Origin: Clostridia bacterium
GTDB taxonomy: Bacteria; Bacillota; Clostridia; Oscillospirales; CAG-272
Assembly (NCBI GenBank): GCA_017447775.1
Contig: JAFSMU010000030.1
Location: 21,872 to 85,871, forward strand
DNA: 64,000 nt
Reading direction: 5' to 3'
Notes under the pieces: generated by a model
The model's input: the letters and a program-made list of their open reading frames with translations, nothing else
The model's database searches: none
Told to the model about the DNA's origin: nothing
Program-made: the position numbers and the translations under genes
In this document: positions 22,613-63,406 of the stretch, one piece after another
How the letters are laid out: the number at the start of each line of letters is the position of its first letter
Numbering within the stretch: position 1 is the first letter of the stretch

Positions 22613-24010
22613 ATGGAAAACACGGCAAAAACAATGGAAAAAATAGTCGCGCTTTGCAAAAACCGCGGCTTCGTATTCGCAGGCTCCGAAATATACGGCG
22701 GCCTTGCAAACACGTGGGACTACGGTCCGCTCGGCGTCGAGGTGAAAAACAACATCAAACGCGCTTGGTGGAAAAAGTTTGTTCAGGAAAACAAGTACAA
22801 CGTCGGACTTGATTCGGCTATTCTTATGAACCCGCAGACGTGGGTAGCGTCGGGACATCTCGGCGGCTTCTCCGATCCTCTTATGGACTGCCGAGAGTGC
22901 AAAGAGCGCTTCCGCGCTGATAAAATAATCGAGGATTACTGCGCCGAAAAAGGCATCACGCTCGATAAACCCGTCGACGCAATGTCGCAAGCCGAGATGA
23001 AGTCGTTCATCGACGATAACAACGTCCCCTGCCCCTCGTGCGGCAAGCACAACTTCACTGATATTCGCCAGTTCAACCTCATGTTCAAGACGTTCCAGGG
23101 CGTTACGGAAGACGCGAAAAACACAGTTTATCTCCGTCCCGAAACGGCGCAAGGCATATTCGTAAACTTTGTAAACGTTCAGCGCACAACGCGCAAAAAG
23201 CTCCCGTTCGGTATCGGTCAGATAGGCAAATCGTTCAGAAACGAGATCACGCCGGGCAACTTCATTTTCCGCGTGCGCGAGTTCGAGCAGATGGAGCTTG
23301 AATTTTTCTGCGAGCCTGACACAGACCTTGAATGGTTCGGATACTGGCGCGGTTTCTGCCGCGATTGGCTCCTTTCCCTCGGCATTAAGGAAGAACACCT
23401 GCGCCTGCGCGACCACGATCCCAAAGAGCTTGCGTTCTATTCAAAAGCGACGACCGACTTCGAATTTCTGTTCCCGTTCGGCTGGGGCGAGCTTTGGGGC
23501 ATTGCGGACAGAACGAATTACGACCTCAACCAGCACCAGACGGTTTCCGGCAAAGACCTTACGTACTTCGACCAGGAAAAGAACGAAAGATACATTCCTT
23601 ACGTTATCGAGCCGTCACTCGGCGTTGAGCGCTCATTCCTTGCGTTCCTCGTTGACGCATACGATGAAGAAGACCTCGGCGACGGCGATATGAGAACTGT
23701 TCTTCGCTTCCACCCGGCTCTTGCTCCGTTCAAGGCGGCTGTCCTTCCTCTTTCAAAGAAGCTCAGCGAAAAAGCGGTTGAAATACACGACGAGCTTTCA
23801 AAATACTTCCCTACAGACTTCGATGAAACAGGCTCTATCGGCAAACGTTATCGCCGTGAGGATGAGATCGGCACGCCGTTCTGCATCACATACGACTTCG
23901 ATTCCGAAAACGACGGCTGCGTAACGGTACGCGACAGAGATACAATGCAGCAGGAAAGAATAAAGATAGCCGATCTTTGTTCTTACATCGAAAAGAAAAT
24001 GGAATTCTGA
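22613..24010 (+). CDS. glyQS: Glycine--tRNA ligase (homodimeric class II, GlyQS)
   Basis: [46 protein letters not shown]...; 465 aa. Confidence 0.93.
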
Positions 24011-24011
24011 T

Positions 24012-24045
24012 AAAAAAGCCCCGCCCAAGCGGCGGGGTTTATTTT
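24012..24045 (+). terminator. Rho-independent terminator of glyQS
   Basis: aaaaaagccccgcccaagcggcggggtttatttt. Confidence 0.8.
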
Positions 24046-24050
24046 GCTAT

Positions 24051-24101
24051 AATAAAACAAAAAAGCGCTCTTTCGAGCGCCTTGGCTGCGGAATAGGGAT
24101 T
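24051..24101 (-). repeat. Direct-repeat copy 1: tRNA-Gln 3' fragment (19 nt, 24083-24101) plus its downstream terminator
   Basis: It is 51/51 nt identical to 24222-24272. It contains the rc of AATCCCTATTCCGCAGCCA (part of the T-loop, the T-stem 3' strand, the acceptor 3' strand and CCA) plus the hairpin gcgctctttcgagcgc with a T-run. Confidence 0.85.
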
Positions 24102-24221
24102 TTCCGTCGCTATTGCTCCTATCGCGCGCTTCGCGCTTGCCCACGTCGGCGAAAACAGTCATTAAGACTGTTTTCTTCCGAGCTGTTGACACAGCTCTCC
24201 CTCCTGGTTCGAATCCCTTGA
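24102..24221. other. 120-nt multi-hairpin insert between the two repeat copies (candidate small structured RNA or integration scar)
   Basis: The hairpins are gcgcg-ctt-cgcgc (24124-24136), gaaaacagtc-attaa-gactgttttc (24151-24175, 10 bp) and agctgt-tgac-acagct (24181-24196). AATCCC (24212-24217) can pair with GGGATT (24096-24101) to close the whole unit. Confidence 0.35.
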
Positions 24222-24272
24222 AATAAAACAAAAAAGCGCTCTTTCGAGCGCCTTGGCTGCGGAATAGGGATT
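24222..24272 (-). repeat. Direct-repeat copy 2 (overlaps the 3' end of the intact tRNA-Gln and its terminator)
   Basis: Identical to 24051-24101. The repeat period is 171 nt. Confidence 0.85.
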
Positions 24273-24327
24273 CGAACCCCAACAAACAGAGTCAGAGTCT
24301 GTCGTGCTGCCGTTACACAATTCCGCA
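24254..24327 (-). tRNA. tRNA-Gln (anticodon CUG), CCA encoded
   Basis: The rc reads TGCGGAA TT GTG..CAC G ACAGA CTCTGAC TCTGT TTGT TGGGG TTCGAAT CCCTA TTCCGCA G CCA. It has a 7-bp acceptor with U1-A72, the anticodon loop C-U-CUG-A-C, a canonical T-arm and a G73 discriminator. Confidence 0.9.
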
Positions 24328-24345: not shown

Positions 24346-24374
24346 ATTATATCAAATTTGATCGTCTTTGTCAA
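24346..24374 (-). promoter_or_regulatory. Consensus sigma-A promoter driving tRNA-Gln
   Basis: On the minus strand, TTGACA (24374-24369), a 17-nt spacer and TATAAT (24351-24346) with TGn. The tRNA starts about 19 nt downstream of the -10. Confidence 0.65.
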
Positions 24375-24484
24375 TATTTTTTTGAAAAATCATTTTTATT
24401 TTTTTATCCCCCGTTTTTATTGTAAAAATTGCACAATTTTTGTCGTTTGAATTTGTTTTTTTCATTGAAAATTTGTTTTATTTA

Positions 24485-24512
24485 TTGACAAAAATTGAAA
24501 GTATGCTATAAT
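24485..24512 (+). promoter_or_regulatory. Consensus sigma-A promoter for the sigma-factor gene
   Basis: TTGACA (24485-24490), a 16-nt spacer and TGcTATAAT (-10 at 24507-24512). Confidence 0.6.
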
Positions 24513-24554: not shown

Positions 24555-25088
24555 ATGGACGAAAAAAAGGAATTGTCTTTCAATAATCTTTATGAGTCTT
24601 ATCTTCCGCTGATGAAGAGCGTCGCTCAAAAAACCGCGGAAATATACTCATTGCCCGATTCCGAATTCGACGATCTGCTTCAGGAAGCGGCGATAGCTTT
24701 ATATACTTCCGCGGCGGCATTCGACAAGGAACGCGGCGTTTCGTTTGGCGTTTATGCAAGGATCTGCATCAAAAATAAGCTGATTTCGTATATAAATCAG
24801 CGTTTTAAGTCGGCTCGCATACCGGATGAGGTATCGCTTGACGAAATATTGGACATTGAAAGCGACGATACAACGCCGGACAAGTTCGTTGTTGGAAAAG
24901 AATCGCTTGACATTTTGAAGAATACAATCGACGAGATGCTGACGGATTTTGAAAGCTCTGTACTATGGCTGTATATAAGCGGTATGTCGTACAATGATAT
25001 TTCAAAAGCACTGTCAAAGCCTCTGAAAACAGTTGACAATGCCCTTCACAGGATCAAGGTCAAGTTACGGAAAATATATCCCCGTTAA
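24555..25088 (+). CDS. Sigma-70 family RNA polymerase sigma factor (small, group 3/4; SigH-like region 2-3 linker)
   Basis: Region 2 is DLLQEAAIALYTSAAAFDKERGVSFGVYARICIKNKLISYI. The region 4 HTH is GMSYNDISKALSKPLKTVDNALHRIKVKL. No adjacent anti-sigma gene is present. Confidence 0.8.
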   Translation: MDEKKELSFNNLYESYLPLMKSVAQKTAEIYSLPDSEFDDLLQEAAIALYTSAAAFDKERGVSFGVYARICIKNKLISYINQRFKSARIPDEVSLDEILDIESDDTTPDKFVVGKESLDILKNTIDEMLTDFESSVLWLYISGMSYNDISKALSKPLKTVDNALHRIKVKLRKIYPR

Positions 25089-25241: not shown

Positions 25242-25517
25242 ATGTACGAGGACAAAACTTTAATTTGCAAGGACTGTGGCAAAGAGTTCGTATTCACCGC
25301 AGGTGAGCAGGAATTCTATGCTGAAAAGGGCTTCCAGAACGAGCCGCAGAGATGCAAGGAATGCCGTGTTGCAAGAAAGAACGCAGCTAAACCCGCCCGC
25401 GAACTGTTTACGGCAGTTTGCGCTAAATGCGGAAAAGAAGCTAAAATTCCTTTCGAGCCGAAGAGCGACAAACCGGTTTATTGCAGCGAGTGCTTCGCAG
25501 CAATGAAGCAGGCATAA
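25242..25517 (+). CDS. Zinc-ribbon protein (two CxxC...CxxC knuckle pairs)
   Basis: The first pair is CKDCGKEFVFTAGEQEFYAEKGFQNEPQRCKEC. The second pair is CAKCGKEAKIPFEPKSDKPVYCSEC. 91 aa. Confidence 0.8.
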   Translation: MYEDKTLICKDCGKEFVFTAGEQEFYAEKGFQNEPQRCKECRVARKNAAKPARELFTAVCAKCGKEAKIPFEPKSDKPVYCSECFAAMKQA

Positions 25518-63331: not shown

Positions 63332-63406
63332 CGAGGTGTGGCGCAATGGTAGCGCGCTTGCTTTGGGAGCAAGATGCTGCAGGTTCAAATCCTGTCACTT
63401 CGACCA
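63332..63406 (+). tRNA. tRNA-Pro (anticodon UGG), CCA encoded
   Basis: CGAGGTG TG GCGC AATGGTA GCGC G CTTGC TTTGGGA GCAAG ATGCT GCAGG TTCAAAT CCTGT CACTTCG A CCA. It has C1-G72, G37 and a full cloverleaf. 75 nt. Confidence 0.92.

Follow-up and report, generated by a model that had tools for sequence, protein, structure and literature searches.

A hairpin-rich, protein-less DNA module behind tRNA genes of gut bacteria: a possible miniature mobile element or a new RNA

Main finding

A 120-nt non-coding, strongly folding insert lying between a glutamine tRNA gene and a duplicate of the tail of that gene was found to be one copy of a large family of conserved modules, here called X, which sits behind several kinds of tRNA gene in gut Clostridia of the order Oscillospirales. 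X has no match in Rfam or in the phage, plasmid and viral collections searched. The copy was noticed in a 64,000-nt stretch of DNA (the window; Clostridia bacterium, GCA_017447775.1, contig JAFSMU010000030.1, positions 21,872 to 85,871). Our preferred reading, held at a probability of about 40%, is that X is a miniature non-autonomous module that recombines at the tRNA T-loop and acts as folded DNA. The main alternative is a new RNA made by read-through of the tRNA terminator.

Architecture of the locus

The first-pass annotation of the window described a perfect 51-bp direct repeat made of the last 19 nt of tRNA-Gln(CUG) plus its terminator, bracketing a 120-nt insert with no protein and three strong hairpins. 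This observation is correct and every coordinate was confirmed. The two 51-nt copies are 100% identical and 171 nt apart, and the repeat corresponds to tRNA positions 58-76 plus 32 nt of terminator. The 19-nt tRNA end occurs twice in the window whereas about 0.02 occurrences are expected by chance. The perfect 10-bp stem is real, and the closing helix proposed between GGGATT and AATCCC is part of the minimum-free-energy fold. The 171-nt unit folds at -67.9 kcal/mol, z = -4.5 against dinucleotide shuffles, and the opposite strand folds equally well (z = -4.6). The first-pass annotation missed a 13-nt perfect inverted copy of the tRNA T-arm (the anti-T), which is a longer partner for the 5' end of the insert than the hexamer in the distal repeat copy. 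The features, from the tRNA promoter outwards, are as follows.

24346..24374, minus strand: promoter of tRNA-Gln, TTGACA, 17-nt spacer, TATAAT, with an upstream TG (12 of 12 matches in a consensus scan; no promoter-like site lies directly upstream of the insert)
24254..24327, minus strand: tRNA-Gln(CUG) gene, intact, CCA encoded (ARAGORN; Rfam RF00005, 57.3 bits)
24222..24272, minus strand: proximal repeat copy, tRNA positions 58-76 (24254-24272) plus terminator T (terminator-like hairpin 24233-24254 and T-run)
24102..24221, minus strand: the 120-nt insert, comprising the next eight features
24206..24218, minus strand: anti-T, 13 nt (AGGGATTCGAACC) perfectly complementary to the T-loop and T-stem 3' strand of the upstream tRNA (24266-24278); it can also pair over 7 bp with the start of the distal repeat copy
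24198..24205, minus strand: conserved purine block AGGAGGGA, Shine-Dalgarno-like, part of the invariant 5' region; no conserved start codon or ORF follows it
24180..24197, minus strand: hairpin P2, 7-bp stem, loop GTCA
24151..24175, minus strand: hairpin P3, perfect 10-bp stem GAAAACAGTC/GACTGTTTTC, loop TTAAT
24137..24151, minus strand: nearly invariant block CGCCGACGTGGGCAA, identical or nearly identical in all 8 loci compared, encoding the 'FADVG' peptide used to find the family
24126..24136, minus strand: mini-hairpin P3b, GCGC-GAA-GCGC (GAGC-GAA-GCGA in most relatives; site of a 51-nt hairpin expansion in locus L096)
24107..24118, minus strand: hairpin P4, here GAGC-AATA-GCGA (5-6 bp Watson-Crick stems in loci L141, L142, L144 and L145)
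24102..24106, minus strand: junction motif CGGAA, abutting the distal tRNA-end copy at position 58
24051..24101, minus strand: distal repeat copy, tRNA positions 58-76 (24083-24101) plus a second copy of terminator T (hairpin 24062-24083)
24016..24040, either strand: bidirectional terminator shared with the convergent glycyl-tRNA synthetase gene (22613-24010, plus strand; identified by Pfam), marking the outer boundary of the locus

Homologous modules in other species

Homologous inserts were found in seven other species-level loci, behind tRNA-Gln in L096, L134, L141, L142, L143 and L144 and behind tRNA-Arg in L145. A covariance model scored them at 86-114 bits. The model found no other copy in the window or in 1.4 Mb of related loci away from tRNAs; a weak hit of 16 bits in locus L064 lies in coding sequence with no tRNA nearby and was rejected. 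The body of X is about 105-185 bp and the whole unit about 150-250 bp. The layout is tRNA, terminator, anti-T, conserved body, a copy of tRNA positions 58-76, and a terminator, with every intact copy followed by a terminator-like hairpin with a T-run. The motif CGGA(A/G)A or GGTAA lies directly before A58 in all 6 loci that keep the distal copy. L134 and L142 lack a clean distal copy, and L145 has an intact tRNA-Arg followed by X and then a Gln-like tRNA end. In L141, L143 and L144 the repeat is exactly positions 58-76, stopping at CCA, and the terminator behind the distal copy differs from the proximal one, whereas in the window and L096 the repeat runs through the terminator. In L144 the distal copy differs from the tRNA by one base (AGTCCC against AATCCC) while the anti-T matches the tRNA. 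The anti-T has 11-17 contiguous complementary nt in all 8 loci, and it changes together with the tRNA in L143 (TTCGAGT with GGGACTCGAAC) and in L145.

Relatives sought in GTDB genomes through the neighbouring glycyl-tRNA synthetase were at best 83% identical and none keeps tRNA-Gln or X after the synthetase, so this single genome scan gave no comparative locus. Among sigma-factor homologs only L096 was informative; loci L097 and L113-L121 lack the tRNA. Of 16 hits in a metagenome scan, 15 were chance matches (a reverse-complemented tRNA next to a chance 12-mer) and only L134 was a true hit. A peptide-profile search gave 93 representative clusters. All were short spurious ORFs of 36-174 aa read across X except one, a chance hit over a few residues of a 2045-aa protein. 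These ORFs lie behind several tRNA types, and at least 16 of the 93 hold two copies of X. Reading the peptides back was compatible with a copy of at least 19 nt of the cognate tRNA end in 12-13 of the 15 ORFs that span both, across at least five different tRNA ends.

Conservation and covariation of the hairpins

The first-pass annotation had set the absence of conservation or covariation in relatives, together with a match to the end of a known integrative element, as grounds for regarding the insert as a simple deletion scar. The outcome was the opposite: conservation and covariation are present, and no phage, plasmid or viral contig in the collections searched was matched. Across the 8 loci three local hairpins covary, next to long invariant blocks, with 14 pairs changed on both sides: 6 of 7 pairs in P2 (97.9% of cells paired), 4 of 9 counted pairs in P3 (98.6% paired) and 4 of 6 pairs in P4. 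On the curated alignment as a whole, 87% of cells are paired and 17 pairs show changes on both sides. None of 500 shuffles reached this, and controls in which the alignment was slid fell to 25-43% paired. RNAalifold had already given 7 such pairs on three sequences before any hand alignment. In P3b the inner two pairs are invariant, while the outer two are G.A/A.G in 7 loci and Watson-Crick in the window. No G-U pair was found among 170 stem cells, against 15 among 174 pairs in terminators of the same loci, though this comparison rests on 8 hand-aligned sequences. The loops are mostly C(GNA)G or C(GNNA)G, and the tetraloops are mostly not GNRA.

Variation in copy number

Copy number at a locus runs from 0 to 3 or more. 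Locus L012, from a close relative with an identical sigma-factor protein, has an empty site, with one copy of the 51-mer (one mismatch) and no insert in an otherwise nearly identical intergenic region, although repeat-mediated deletion could produce the same state. Locus L013 carries an insert-end/repeat/insert-start junction, which means a tandem array or a circle. L141 has 2 identical units and L142 has 3.2 units. Genomic neighbours differ at every locus. Hairpin stems and terminators have diverged completely between species, so no recent transfer between species is visible. The neighbouring tRNA-Ser in L141 has the same layout as X but with an unrelated body, and none of the other tRNAs among the 43 in the loci examined has it.

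Searches for mobility genes and known relatives

No integrase, transposase, relaxase or reverse transcriptase was found next to the window copy, using Pfam on eight flanking ORFs covering most of 19.4-27.4 kb, or in the 10-kb flanks of L141, L142 and L144. No tnpA or tnpB gene, or TnpB or IscB gene, lies in these flanks, and none of the 93 peptide clusters is the size of TnpB. No LGH...Y motif was found in six-frame translations of the window. The only trace of an integrase was a 61-aa C-terminal fragment of a tyrosine recombinase (PF00589, 33.3 bits), outside the unit, about 150 nt beyond the distal copy in L143. Seven exact-pattern scans of IMG/VR with both insert ends, the att-like 51-mer and four conserved blocks gave only chance matches in GC-rich coding DNA or reverse-complemented phage tRNA genes. 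BLAST of the window X and the L141 X against INPHARED phages and PLSDB plasmids found nothing, including no ICE-bearing record. Scans of the window locus, L141, L143 and L145 against Rfam 15 with permissive E-values, which include families for IS605-linked RNAs, reported only the tRNA at a significant score.

Other identities for the insert were considered and rejected. It is not a tRNA on the opposite strand (class II, with a long variable arm), as the T-arm-like sequence cannot form a T-stem, the hairpin loops vary and lack U33, and neither ARAGORN nor the Rfam tRNA model reports a second tRNA or a tmRNA on either strand. A small protein gene was rejected because, although a start codon sits at the same place in three loci, there is no conservation beyond the nucleotide-conserved block, the frame runs through the tRNA fragment and the terminator, and the interior has no ORF conserved across species. 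An acceptor-like mini-helix at the 3' end, CGGAA with UUCCG in the window, is not kept in L141, whose tRNA has a different acceptor stem. The integron core motifs (RYYYAAC and GTTRRRY) are absent from the unit by inspection, and an informal comparison with oriT nick sites, the sso CS-6 motif and the IS91 target GAAC, which offers leads only, showed no convincing match.

Interpretation

The layout of the unit, the conservation of the body in sequence and hairpin structure, its presence behind several tRNA types and the range of copy number are established by the sequences compared; mobility, its mechanism, any single-stranded DNA activity, and any transcript or its function are inferred. The interpretation in the first-pass annotation, which offered a novel tRNA-linked small RNA, a miniature non-autonomous element or the scar of a deleted island, is partly supported, as the scar is now unlikely while the other two readings both remain possible on present evidence. 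In the mechanism that we favour, a unit made of tRNA 3' end, terminator, anti-T and body would recombine with a tRNA gene in the T-loop, at or just after position 57/58. The tRNA end and terminator of the unit would rebuild a working tRNA gene and the original 3' end and its terminator would be pushed to the far side. The recombinase would be supplied in trans, and we suspect a T-loop-specific tyrosine recombinase. Once inserted, the two tRNA-end copies would allow precise loss, giving the empty site, and tandem amplification by recombination between repeats. In this view the anti-T pairs with the unit's own tRNA-end copy and, with the Watson-Crick-only body hairpins and their loops, may act as a folded single-stranded DNA signal, rather than as RNA, by analogy with integron attC sites, the CTX phage attP hairpin and transfer or replication origins. 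In this view also, since the proximal and distal terminators of the window are identical, the 51-bp repeat must have been homogenised or duplicated recently.

Support for site-specific insertion comes from the exact 58-76 repeats, the distinct distal terminators, the match to the cognate tRNA, and the report that a T-loop attP core can be retargeted to other tRNAs in phage Ms6 (PMC1762012). The empty and tandem sites, the differing genomic neighbours, the integrase fragment in L143, the lack of G-U pairs in the stems and the same layout at the tRNA-Ser in L141 also speak for this reading. Against it, no autonomous relative was found, no mobility genes lie in the flanks examined, and no recent transfer between species is visible. 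Classical att sites do not carry an inverted copy of the core 35-50 bp away, thus the anti-T is not explained by known integrase biology. The arrangements in L145, L142 and L134 need secondary rearrangements, and the repeats that run through the terminator need a second step. The long invariant unpaired blocks and purine-rich loops on the tRNA-sense strand fit a functional RNA equally well.

The main rival, possible but rated below the mobile reading and in line with the putative read-through RNA of about 170 nt with a tRNA-like 3' end proposed in the first-pass annotation, is a structured non-coding RNA forming a functional 3' trailer, from the anti-T to the distal tRNA-end copy and stopping at the second terminator, with the anti-T pairing either with the T-arm of the co-transcribed tRNA or with the RNA's own 3' tRNA-end copy, and the conserved loops binding a protein or a ligand. 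X lies directly downstream of a tRNA gene with a perfect promoter, covarying hairpins beside invariant unpaired blocks are the usual signature of a functional RNA, the GAA and GNNA loops and the AGGAGG block all lie on the tRNA-sense strand, the anti-T tracks the upstream tRNA across tRNA types, and the strong fold and the lack of nearby mobility genes also agree. However, a predicted stable terminator hairpin (-13 to -25 kcal/mol, followed by a T-run) separates the promoter from X in every locus and no promoter lies in front of X. The lack of G-U pairs, the mostly non-GNRA tetraloops, the equal folding of the opposite strand and the lack of an Rfam match count against it. Loss of X from a close relative and a copy number of 0 to 3 or more are odd for a housekeeping RNA, L134 and L142 lack the 3' tRNA-end part, and spread to several tRNA types still requires some form of mobility.

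The remaining explanations appear unlikely. X could be an old, now immobile flank of tRNA genes, with repeats arising locally by replication slippage, template switching or unequal crossing-over around strong hairpins and quasi-palindrome correction keeping the anti-T complementary to the T-arm. Arrays do end in partial units (the fourth copy in L142 and the second tRNA-Ser unit in L141), the perfect 51-bp, 186-bp and 193-bp repeats are clearly recent local events, and the empty site could be a repeat-mediated deletion, but the junction to position 58 is the same across species and dozens of peptide clusters, homologous bodies lie behind different tRNA types each with its matching tRNA end, so the body must have been copied between loci, and most tRNAs in related genomes have nothing of the kind. 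Spread by reverse transcription is slightly less likely still: cDNA synthesis would start at the 3' end of a tRNA or pre-tRNA, stop in the T-loop near position 58 and switch to X RNA, producing X fused to tRNA positions 58-76, and the terminal redundancy would then guide insertion next to the same tRNA gene. The Neurospora Mauriceville retroplasmid captures tRNA sequences in this way. The 5' edge of the repeat is fixed at position 58, the copy matches whichever tRNA is upstream, and the 3' edge coincides with an RNA 3' end in every case, being the mature CCA end in L141, L143 and L144 and lying in or just past the T-run, near where the primary transcript would end, in the window and L096. Against this, no reverse transcriptase is present in any flank examined, CCA is genome-encoded so the mature-end signature is not diagnostic, site-specific recombination predicts the same edges because only the tRNA part is under selection, and no poly-A or variable-length target duplications were seen. 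Least likely is the plain scar of a prophage or island that integrated into tRNA-Gln and lost its interior. A direct repeat of a tRNA 3' end is the classic att signature, tRNA gene fragments from integration are widespread (PMC9897764) and an integrase fragment lies near the L143 copy, but the same interior with the same junctions is conserved and structurally constrained in eight loci and 93 peptide clusters, it matches no phage, plasmid or viral contig in the collections searched, and independent deletions would not repeatedly leave the same remnant.

Comparison with known systems

Prophages and genomic islands with a T-loop att site, such as mycobacteriophage Ms6 and, reportedly, the T-loop 'sublocation' class of Williams 2002, share with X a direct repeat that starts in the T-loop and ends at the tRNA 3' end, a tRNA rebuilt by the proximal copy, presence/absence and tandem accretion at the site, and documented retargeting (PMC1762012; PMC9897764). 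X differs in its small size, in having no integrase, excisionase or cargo, in its inverted T-arm copy and in its conserved multi-hairpin interior. Cis-mobilizable elements (CIMEs), att-flanked ICE derivatives lacking recombination and transfer genes, are likewise flanked by attL- and attR-like repeats and expected to depend on a partner in trans or in cis (PMC5704250). CIMEs are kilobase-sized decay products of a recognisable ICE, whereas X is about 120 bp, is conserved across species and tRNA types, and showed no descent from an ICE or IME in the collections searched. With integron attC sites and the CTX phage attP(+) hairpin used by XerCD, X shares stems conserved in structure more than in sequence, a recombinase that is not encoded in the unit, and tandem arrays, and the tRNA-end copy paired with the anti-T would rebuild a double-stranded copy of part of the chromosomal target. 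However, no integron integrase or rolling-circle replication gene is present, the target is a T-loop and not attI or dif, and single-strand activity is inferred only from pair and loop statistics.

MITEs and other small intergenic repeats (BOX, RUP, ERIC, Correia, REP/BIME, IS200/IS605-derived PATEs) resemble X in their size of 100-200 bp, lack of coding capacity, high folding potential, many copies across genomes and dependence on an enzyme in trans. Copies of X are instead tied to a tRNA gene 3' end, the duplication is 19-51 nt of tRNA and not a 2-10-bp target duplication, and the only inverted repeat is the anti-T against the tRNA end, with no terminal inverted repeats of the transposon type. 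tRNA trailer-derived RNAs, such as the 3' external transcribed spacer of leuZ in E. coli, also lie in a tRNA 3' flank, and TnpB omega-RNAs have a structured scaffold followed by a 3' guide, comparable to the 19-nt segment of X that is identical to a genomic target and is followed by a terminator. Here a full terminator precedes X, and the proximal junction would itself be a target of such a guide.

A more speculative possibility, which we regard as doubtful but not excluded, is that X and the unrelated tRNA-Ser module in L141 represent a previously unrecognised class of protein-less elements that home to tRNA genes. The spare tRNA 3' end with its terminator and the inverted T-arm would fold together, as single-stranded DNA or as RNA, into a mimic of or guide to the T-loop target, and the unit would insert at position 57/58 of whichever tRNA it matches using a host or helper enzyme. 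This would be a nucleic-acid-specified targeting scheme not covered by known integrase, transposase or Xer-exploiting elements.

tRNA genes are the classic landing sites for phages and genomic islands, but the units known to use them are kilobases long and carry their own integrase, whereas X is a module of about 120 bp with no genes, conserved across many uncultured gut Clostridia and several tRNA types. In either case X explains why assemblies of these genomes often break at tRNA genes and is a source of the partial tRNA sequences that can confuse annotation. If X is an RNA, it is a new widespread class tied to tRNA expression. If X is mobile, it would be the integrase-world counterpart of a MITE and would point to a recombinase that reads a folded mimic of the tRNA gene, of interest to both mobile-element biology and genome engineering.

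The tRNA-Gln locus

A search for repeats within the window returned two 51-nt copies that are 100% identical and 171 nt apart. As ARAGORN and Rfam both place an intact tRNA-Gln(CUG) on the minus strand at this locus, the repeat is tRNA positions 58–76 plus 32 nt of terminator. The observation made in the first-pass annotation, namely a perfect 51-bp repeat of the tRNA 3' end and terminator bracketing a structured 120-nt insert, was therefore confirmed. The features of the locus are as follows.

24051–24101: distal copy of the 51-nt repeat
24102–24221: the 120 nt between the copies, holding no ORF conserved across species
24151–24175: perfect 10-bp stem within the insert
24206–24218: 13-nt perfect inverted copy of the tRNA T-arm, here called the anti-T
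24222–24272: proximal copy of the 51-nt repeat
24254–24327 (minus strand): tRNA-Gln(CUG) gene
24346–24374 (minus strand): sigma-70-type promoter of tRNA-Gln
24450–24489: 20-nt tandem pair, AATTTGTTTTTTTCATTGAA / AATTTGTTTTATTTATTGAC, overlapping the -35 region of the following promoter
24485–24512 (plus strand): sigma-70-type promoter of the ECF sigma-factor gene
24555–25088: ECF sigma-factor gene
25242–25517: gene for a 91-aa double treble-clef zinc-finger protein (PF13451 and PF23477)

The 19-nt tRNA end occurs twice in the window whereas about 0.02 occurrences are expected by chance. Read with the tRNA, the 171-nt unit is predicted to fold at -67.9 kcal/mol (z = -4.5) and the fold includes both the 10-bp stem and the GGGATT/AATCCC closing helix described in the first-pass annotation, although the opposite strand folds about as well (z = -4.6). 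The anti-T had been overlooked. Each repeat copy holds a terminator-like hairpin with a T-run. The locus lies between a glycyl-tRNA synthetase gene and the divergent ECF sigma-factor gene, and the two promoters, both of which match the consensus at 12 of 12 positions, face away from each other. The zinc-finger protein encoded after the sigma factor is possibly its anti-sigma partner, and this gene pair is kept in all of the sigma homolog loci even where tRNA-Gln is absent.

Variation within the species

Contigs encoding the same synthetase or sigma factor mostly carry an identical unit. However, one contig, L012 (Logan SRR17284448), has an otherwise nearly identical intergenic region with a single copy of the 51-mer and no insert, and is thus an empty site. 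At its end (L012:1–30) this contig diverges from the window just outside the shared bidirectional terminator, where the synthetase stop codon should be, so that its upstream neighbour may differ or the contig end may be chimeric. A further contig, L013 (ERZ28018698), begins with the last 8 nt of the insert joined to a repeat copy and then to the start of the insert, a junction that exists only in a tandem array or a circle. Five independent assemblies of this species (L003, L009, L010, L011 and L014) break inside or at the edge of tRNA-Gln or the repeat, which fits with the repeat, or copy-number heterogeneity, confusing assemblers. The unit is therefore polymorphic in copy number (0, 1, 2 or more) among close relatives.

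Homologous inserts at other loci

Nothing similar to the insert was found in Rfam, in INPHARED phages, in PLSDB plasmids or in IMG/VR. A sigma-factor homolog with 64% identity led to L096, a locus where another species has tRNA-Gln, its own different terminator, a homologous insert and again the tRNA end plus that species' own terminator. One metagenome scan added a further locus, L134. Gene callers sometimes call spurious ORFs across such elements. The insert was translated in the frame that reads TVFADVG and used to search the protein collections, giving nine hits. A profile search of 1.84 billion representatives then gave 93 clusters, all of them ORFs of 36–174 aa except for one 2045-aa protein matched over only a few residues. 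The DNA of five more loci (L141, L142, L143, L144 and L145) was recovered. A covariance model built from the eight loci scores all copies of the insert, hereafter X, at 86–114 bits and finds no other copy in the window or in 1.4 Mb of related DNA.

Layout and covariation of the family

The shared layout is tRNA, terminator T, anti-T, body, a copy of tRNA positions 58–76 (here called 'a') and a terminator. The body contains, in order, an invariant AAGGAGGGAGC-like block; hairpin P2 of 2–7 bp; GGAAG; hairpin P3, AAAAC-N4-loop-N4-GUUUU; a nearly invariant block of about 30 nt, YGCCGACGYGGGCAACGAGCGAAGCGAGGCGA, which includes a GAGC-GAA-GCGA mini-hairpin (P3b); the variable hairpin P4; and CGGA(A/G)A, which abuts position 58. 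In the L096 copy a 51-nt imperfect hairpin (L096:175–225) is inserted exactly in the loop of P3b, an expansion segment at a position that is a GAA triloop in the other loci.

On a hand-curated alignment, which MAFFT left unchanged, 87% of cells pair and 17 pairs show changes on both sides. None of 500 shuffles reaches any of the five measures, and sliding the partner column by 1–3 positions drops pairing to 25–43%. Hairpins P2, P3 and P4 carry 6, 4 and 4 covarying pairs, respectively. As these are short local hairpins the hand alignment leaves little freedom, though it was still fitted by eye and eight sequences are few. RNAalifold had already found 7 covarying pairs on three sequences that were aligned automatically.

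Relation of X to the adjacent tRNA

In all eight loci the 5' end of X has 11–17 contiguous bases complementary to the T-loop and T-stem 3' strand of the upstream tRNA but only 5–11 such bases complementary to the distal 'a'. The anti-T tracks the tRNA. In L143 the tRNA T-loop is TTCGAGT and the anti-T reads GGGACTCGAAC, while in L145 the upstream gene is tRNA-Arg and the anti-T matches its T-stem (AAAGGG with CCCTTT). Reading back the peptides suggests the same in two of the ORFs, P0052 and P0100, where the T-loop is TTCGATT and the anti-T is GGGAATCGAAC, though this last point is an inference from the codons.

ORFs that span both the tRNA end and the post-X copy show different tRNA ends, for example FESLALRQ with KKSLALRH, FESLTLRQ with KKSLTLRQ or IPNSPP, FESHRLRQ with KSHRLRQ, IPDESP with IPDESP, and the tRNA-Arg end NPFQRAK. 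X sits behind several tRNAs with a matching tail. A permissive back-translation test finds a compatible run of at least 19 nt in 12–13 of 15 such ORFs but, as the null mean is 12.7 nt and the null maximum is 22 nt, this is supportive rather than strong. At least 16 of the 93 ORFs contain two copies of X. L141 has two identical 186-bp units and L142 has three 193-bp units plus a partial fourth.

In L141, L143 and L144 the repeated segment is exactly positions 58–76, ending at CCA, and the terminator after the distal copy (T') is unrelated to the proximal terminator T. In L144 the distal copy has one difference from the tRNA while the anti-T matches the tRNA. This is what site-specific integration at the T-loop predicts, as the incoming unit would supply the proximal tRNA end and a terminator while the host's original end and terminator would move to the far side. 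In the window and in L096, however, the repeat runs on through the terminator and, given that terminators differ completely between species, this identity must be recent (conversion or duplication). L134 is cut inside P4 and L142 lacks a clean 'a'. L145 combines tRNA-Arg, an Arg-matched anti-T and a decayed Gln-type 'a', after which there is a decayed inverted tRNA-Gln 3' end, TGGCAGCGGAATAGAGGATTC (L145:920–985); this mosaic suggests recombination between X copies at different tRNA loci. These three loci need secondary rearrangements under any model.

Search for recombinase genes near X

The flanks of L141, L142 and L144 (10 kb) and of L134 (9.7 kb) hold housekeeping genes only. A Pfam search of eight ORFs flanking the window copy, covering most of 19.4–27.4 kb, also showed housekeeping genes only, and a six-frame motif scan of the whole window found no tyrosine-recombinase catalytic motif. 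The one exception is L143, where a 61-aa C-terminal fragment of a tyrosine recombinase (L143:968–1150, plus strand; PF00589, 33.3 bits, E = 5e-8), preceded by stop codons, lies about 150 nt past the distal copy. A third, decayed tRNA-end-like stretch, CCCGAATCCCCTCCGCAGG (L143 about 870–890), lies between them. The site has therefore hosted an integrase-bearing element, but the fragment lies outside X.

DNA or RNA

Stems P2 and P3, the inner pairs of P3b, and P4 contain 0 G-U among 170 cells whereas minimum-free-energy folds of the terminators in the same loci contain 15 G-U among 174 pairs. Most loops are C(GAA)G or another G-N-A triloop, or G-N-N-A tetraloops with a pyrimidine at the third position. 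Hairpins of the d(GCGAAGC) type are exceptionally stable as DNA, whereas structured RNAs favour GNRA and UNCG loops. Both strands fold equally well and a predicted stable terminator hairpin precedes X in every locus. These points lean towards a DNA-level role, but they rest on few sequences. Against this, the purine-rich loops and the AGGAGG block are strand-specific, every intact copy ends in a terminator and long unpaired blocks are invariant, all of which also fit an RNA.

A second family with the same plan

In L141 the neighbouring tRNA-Ser(GCT) (L141:9209–9552, minus strand) is followed by its terminator and a 16-nt perfect anti-T, then by an unrelated body of about 60 nt made of three short hairpins with GAA, GCA and AGA triloops. 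Next come a 21-nt copy of the tRNA-Ser 3' end, the terminator again and a partial second unit (125-nt repeat, spacing 149). Among 43 tRNAs in the non-redundant loci examined, only the X-bearing ones and this one have a downstream anti-T of 11 nt or more. The only other tRNA in the window, tRNA-Pro (63332–63406, T-loop TTCAAAT), has a plain terminator with no anti-T and no duplicated 3' end. The architecture, not only the X sequence, therefore appears to be the functional unit.

Interpretation

The interpretation of the first-pass annotation, which offered a tRNA-linked small RNA, a miniature non-autonomous element or the scar of a deleted island, is partly supported. The most likely mechanism, held tentatively at about 0.4, is that X is a miniature non-autonomous module that recombines at the tRNA T-loop with an enzyme supplied in trans, and whose hairpins act as folded DNA. 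The main rival, itself doubtful, is a structured RNA made by read-through, and these two leading readings are not mutually exclusive. A retro-copying origin or purely local duplication are weaker alternatives, and a plain island scar is unlikely.

Of the known systems, X would work most like a T-loop-targeting integrative element, with a repeat from the T-loop to the 3' end. Phage Ms6 shows that such cores can be retargeted (PMC1762012) and fragments of this kind are common (PMC9897764). X differs from these elements in that it contains no integrase and shows no descent from any known element in the phage, plasmid and viral collections searched. Nor did it have the features tested for MITEs, integron attC sites, IS200/IS605 derivatives or tRNA-like genes, or match any Rfam family. 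X is therefore regarded as a variant of the T-loop-targeting plan that has these differences, and it is possible, though unlikely, that it is a categorically new, nucleic-acid-specified homing module.

Recombination, the enzyme in trans, the action of the hairpins as folded DNA and the read-through transcript are all inferred. What the analysis itself supports well is that the insert behind tRNA-Gln is not a chance remnant but a member of a large, conserved, structured family linked to tRNA genes, which has no match in Rfam or in the phage, plasmid and viral collections searched and which is dynamic in copy number.
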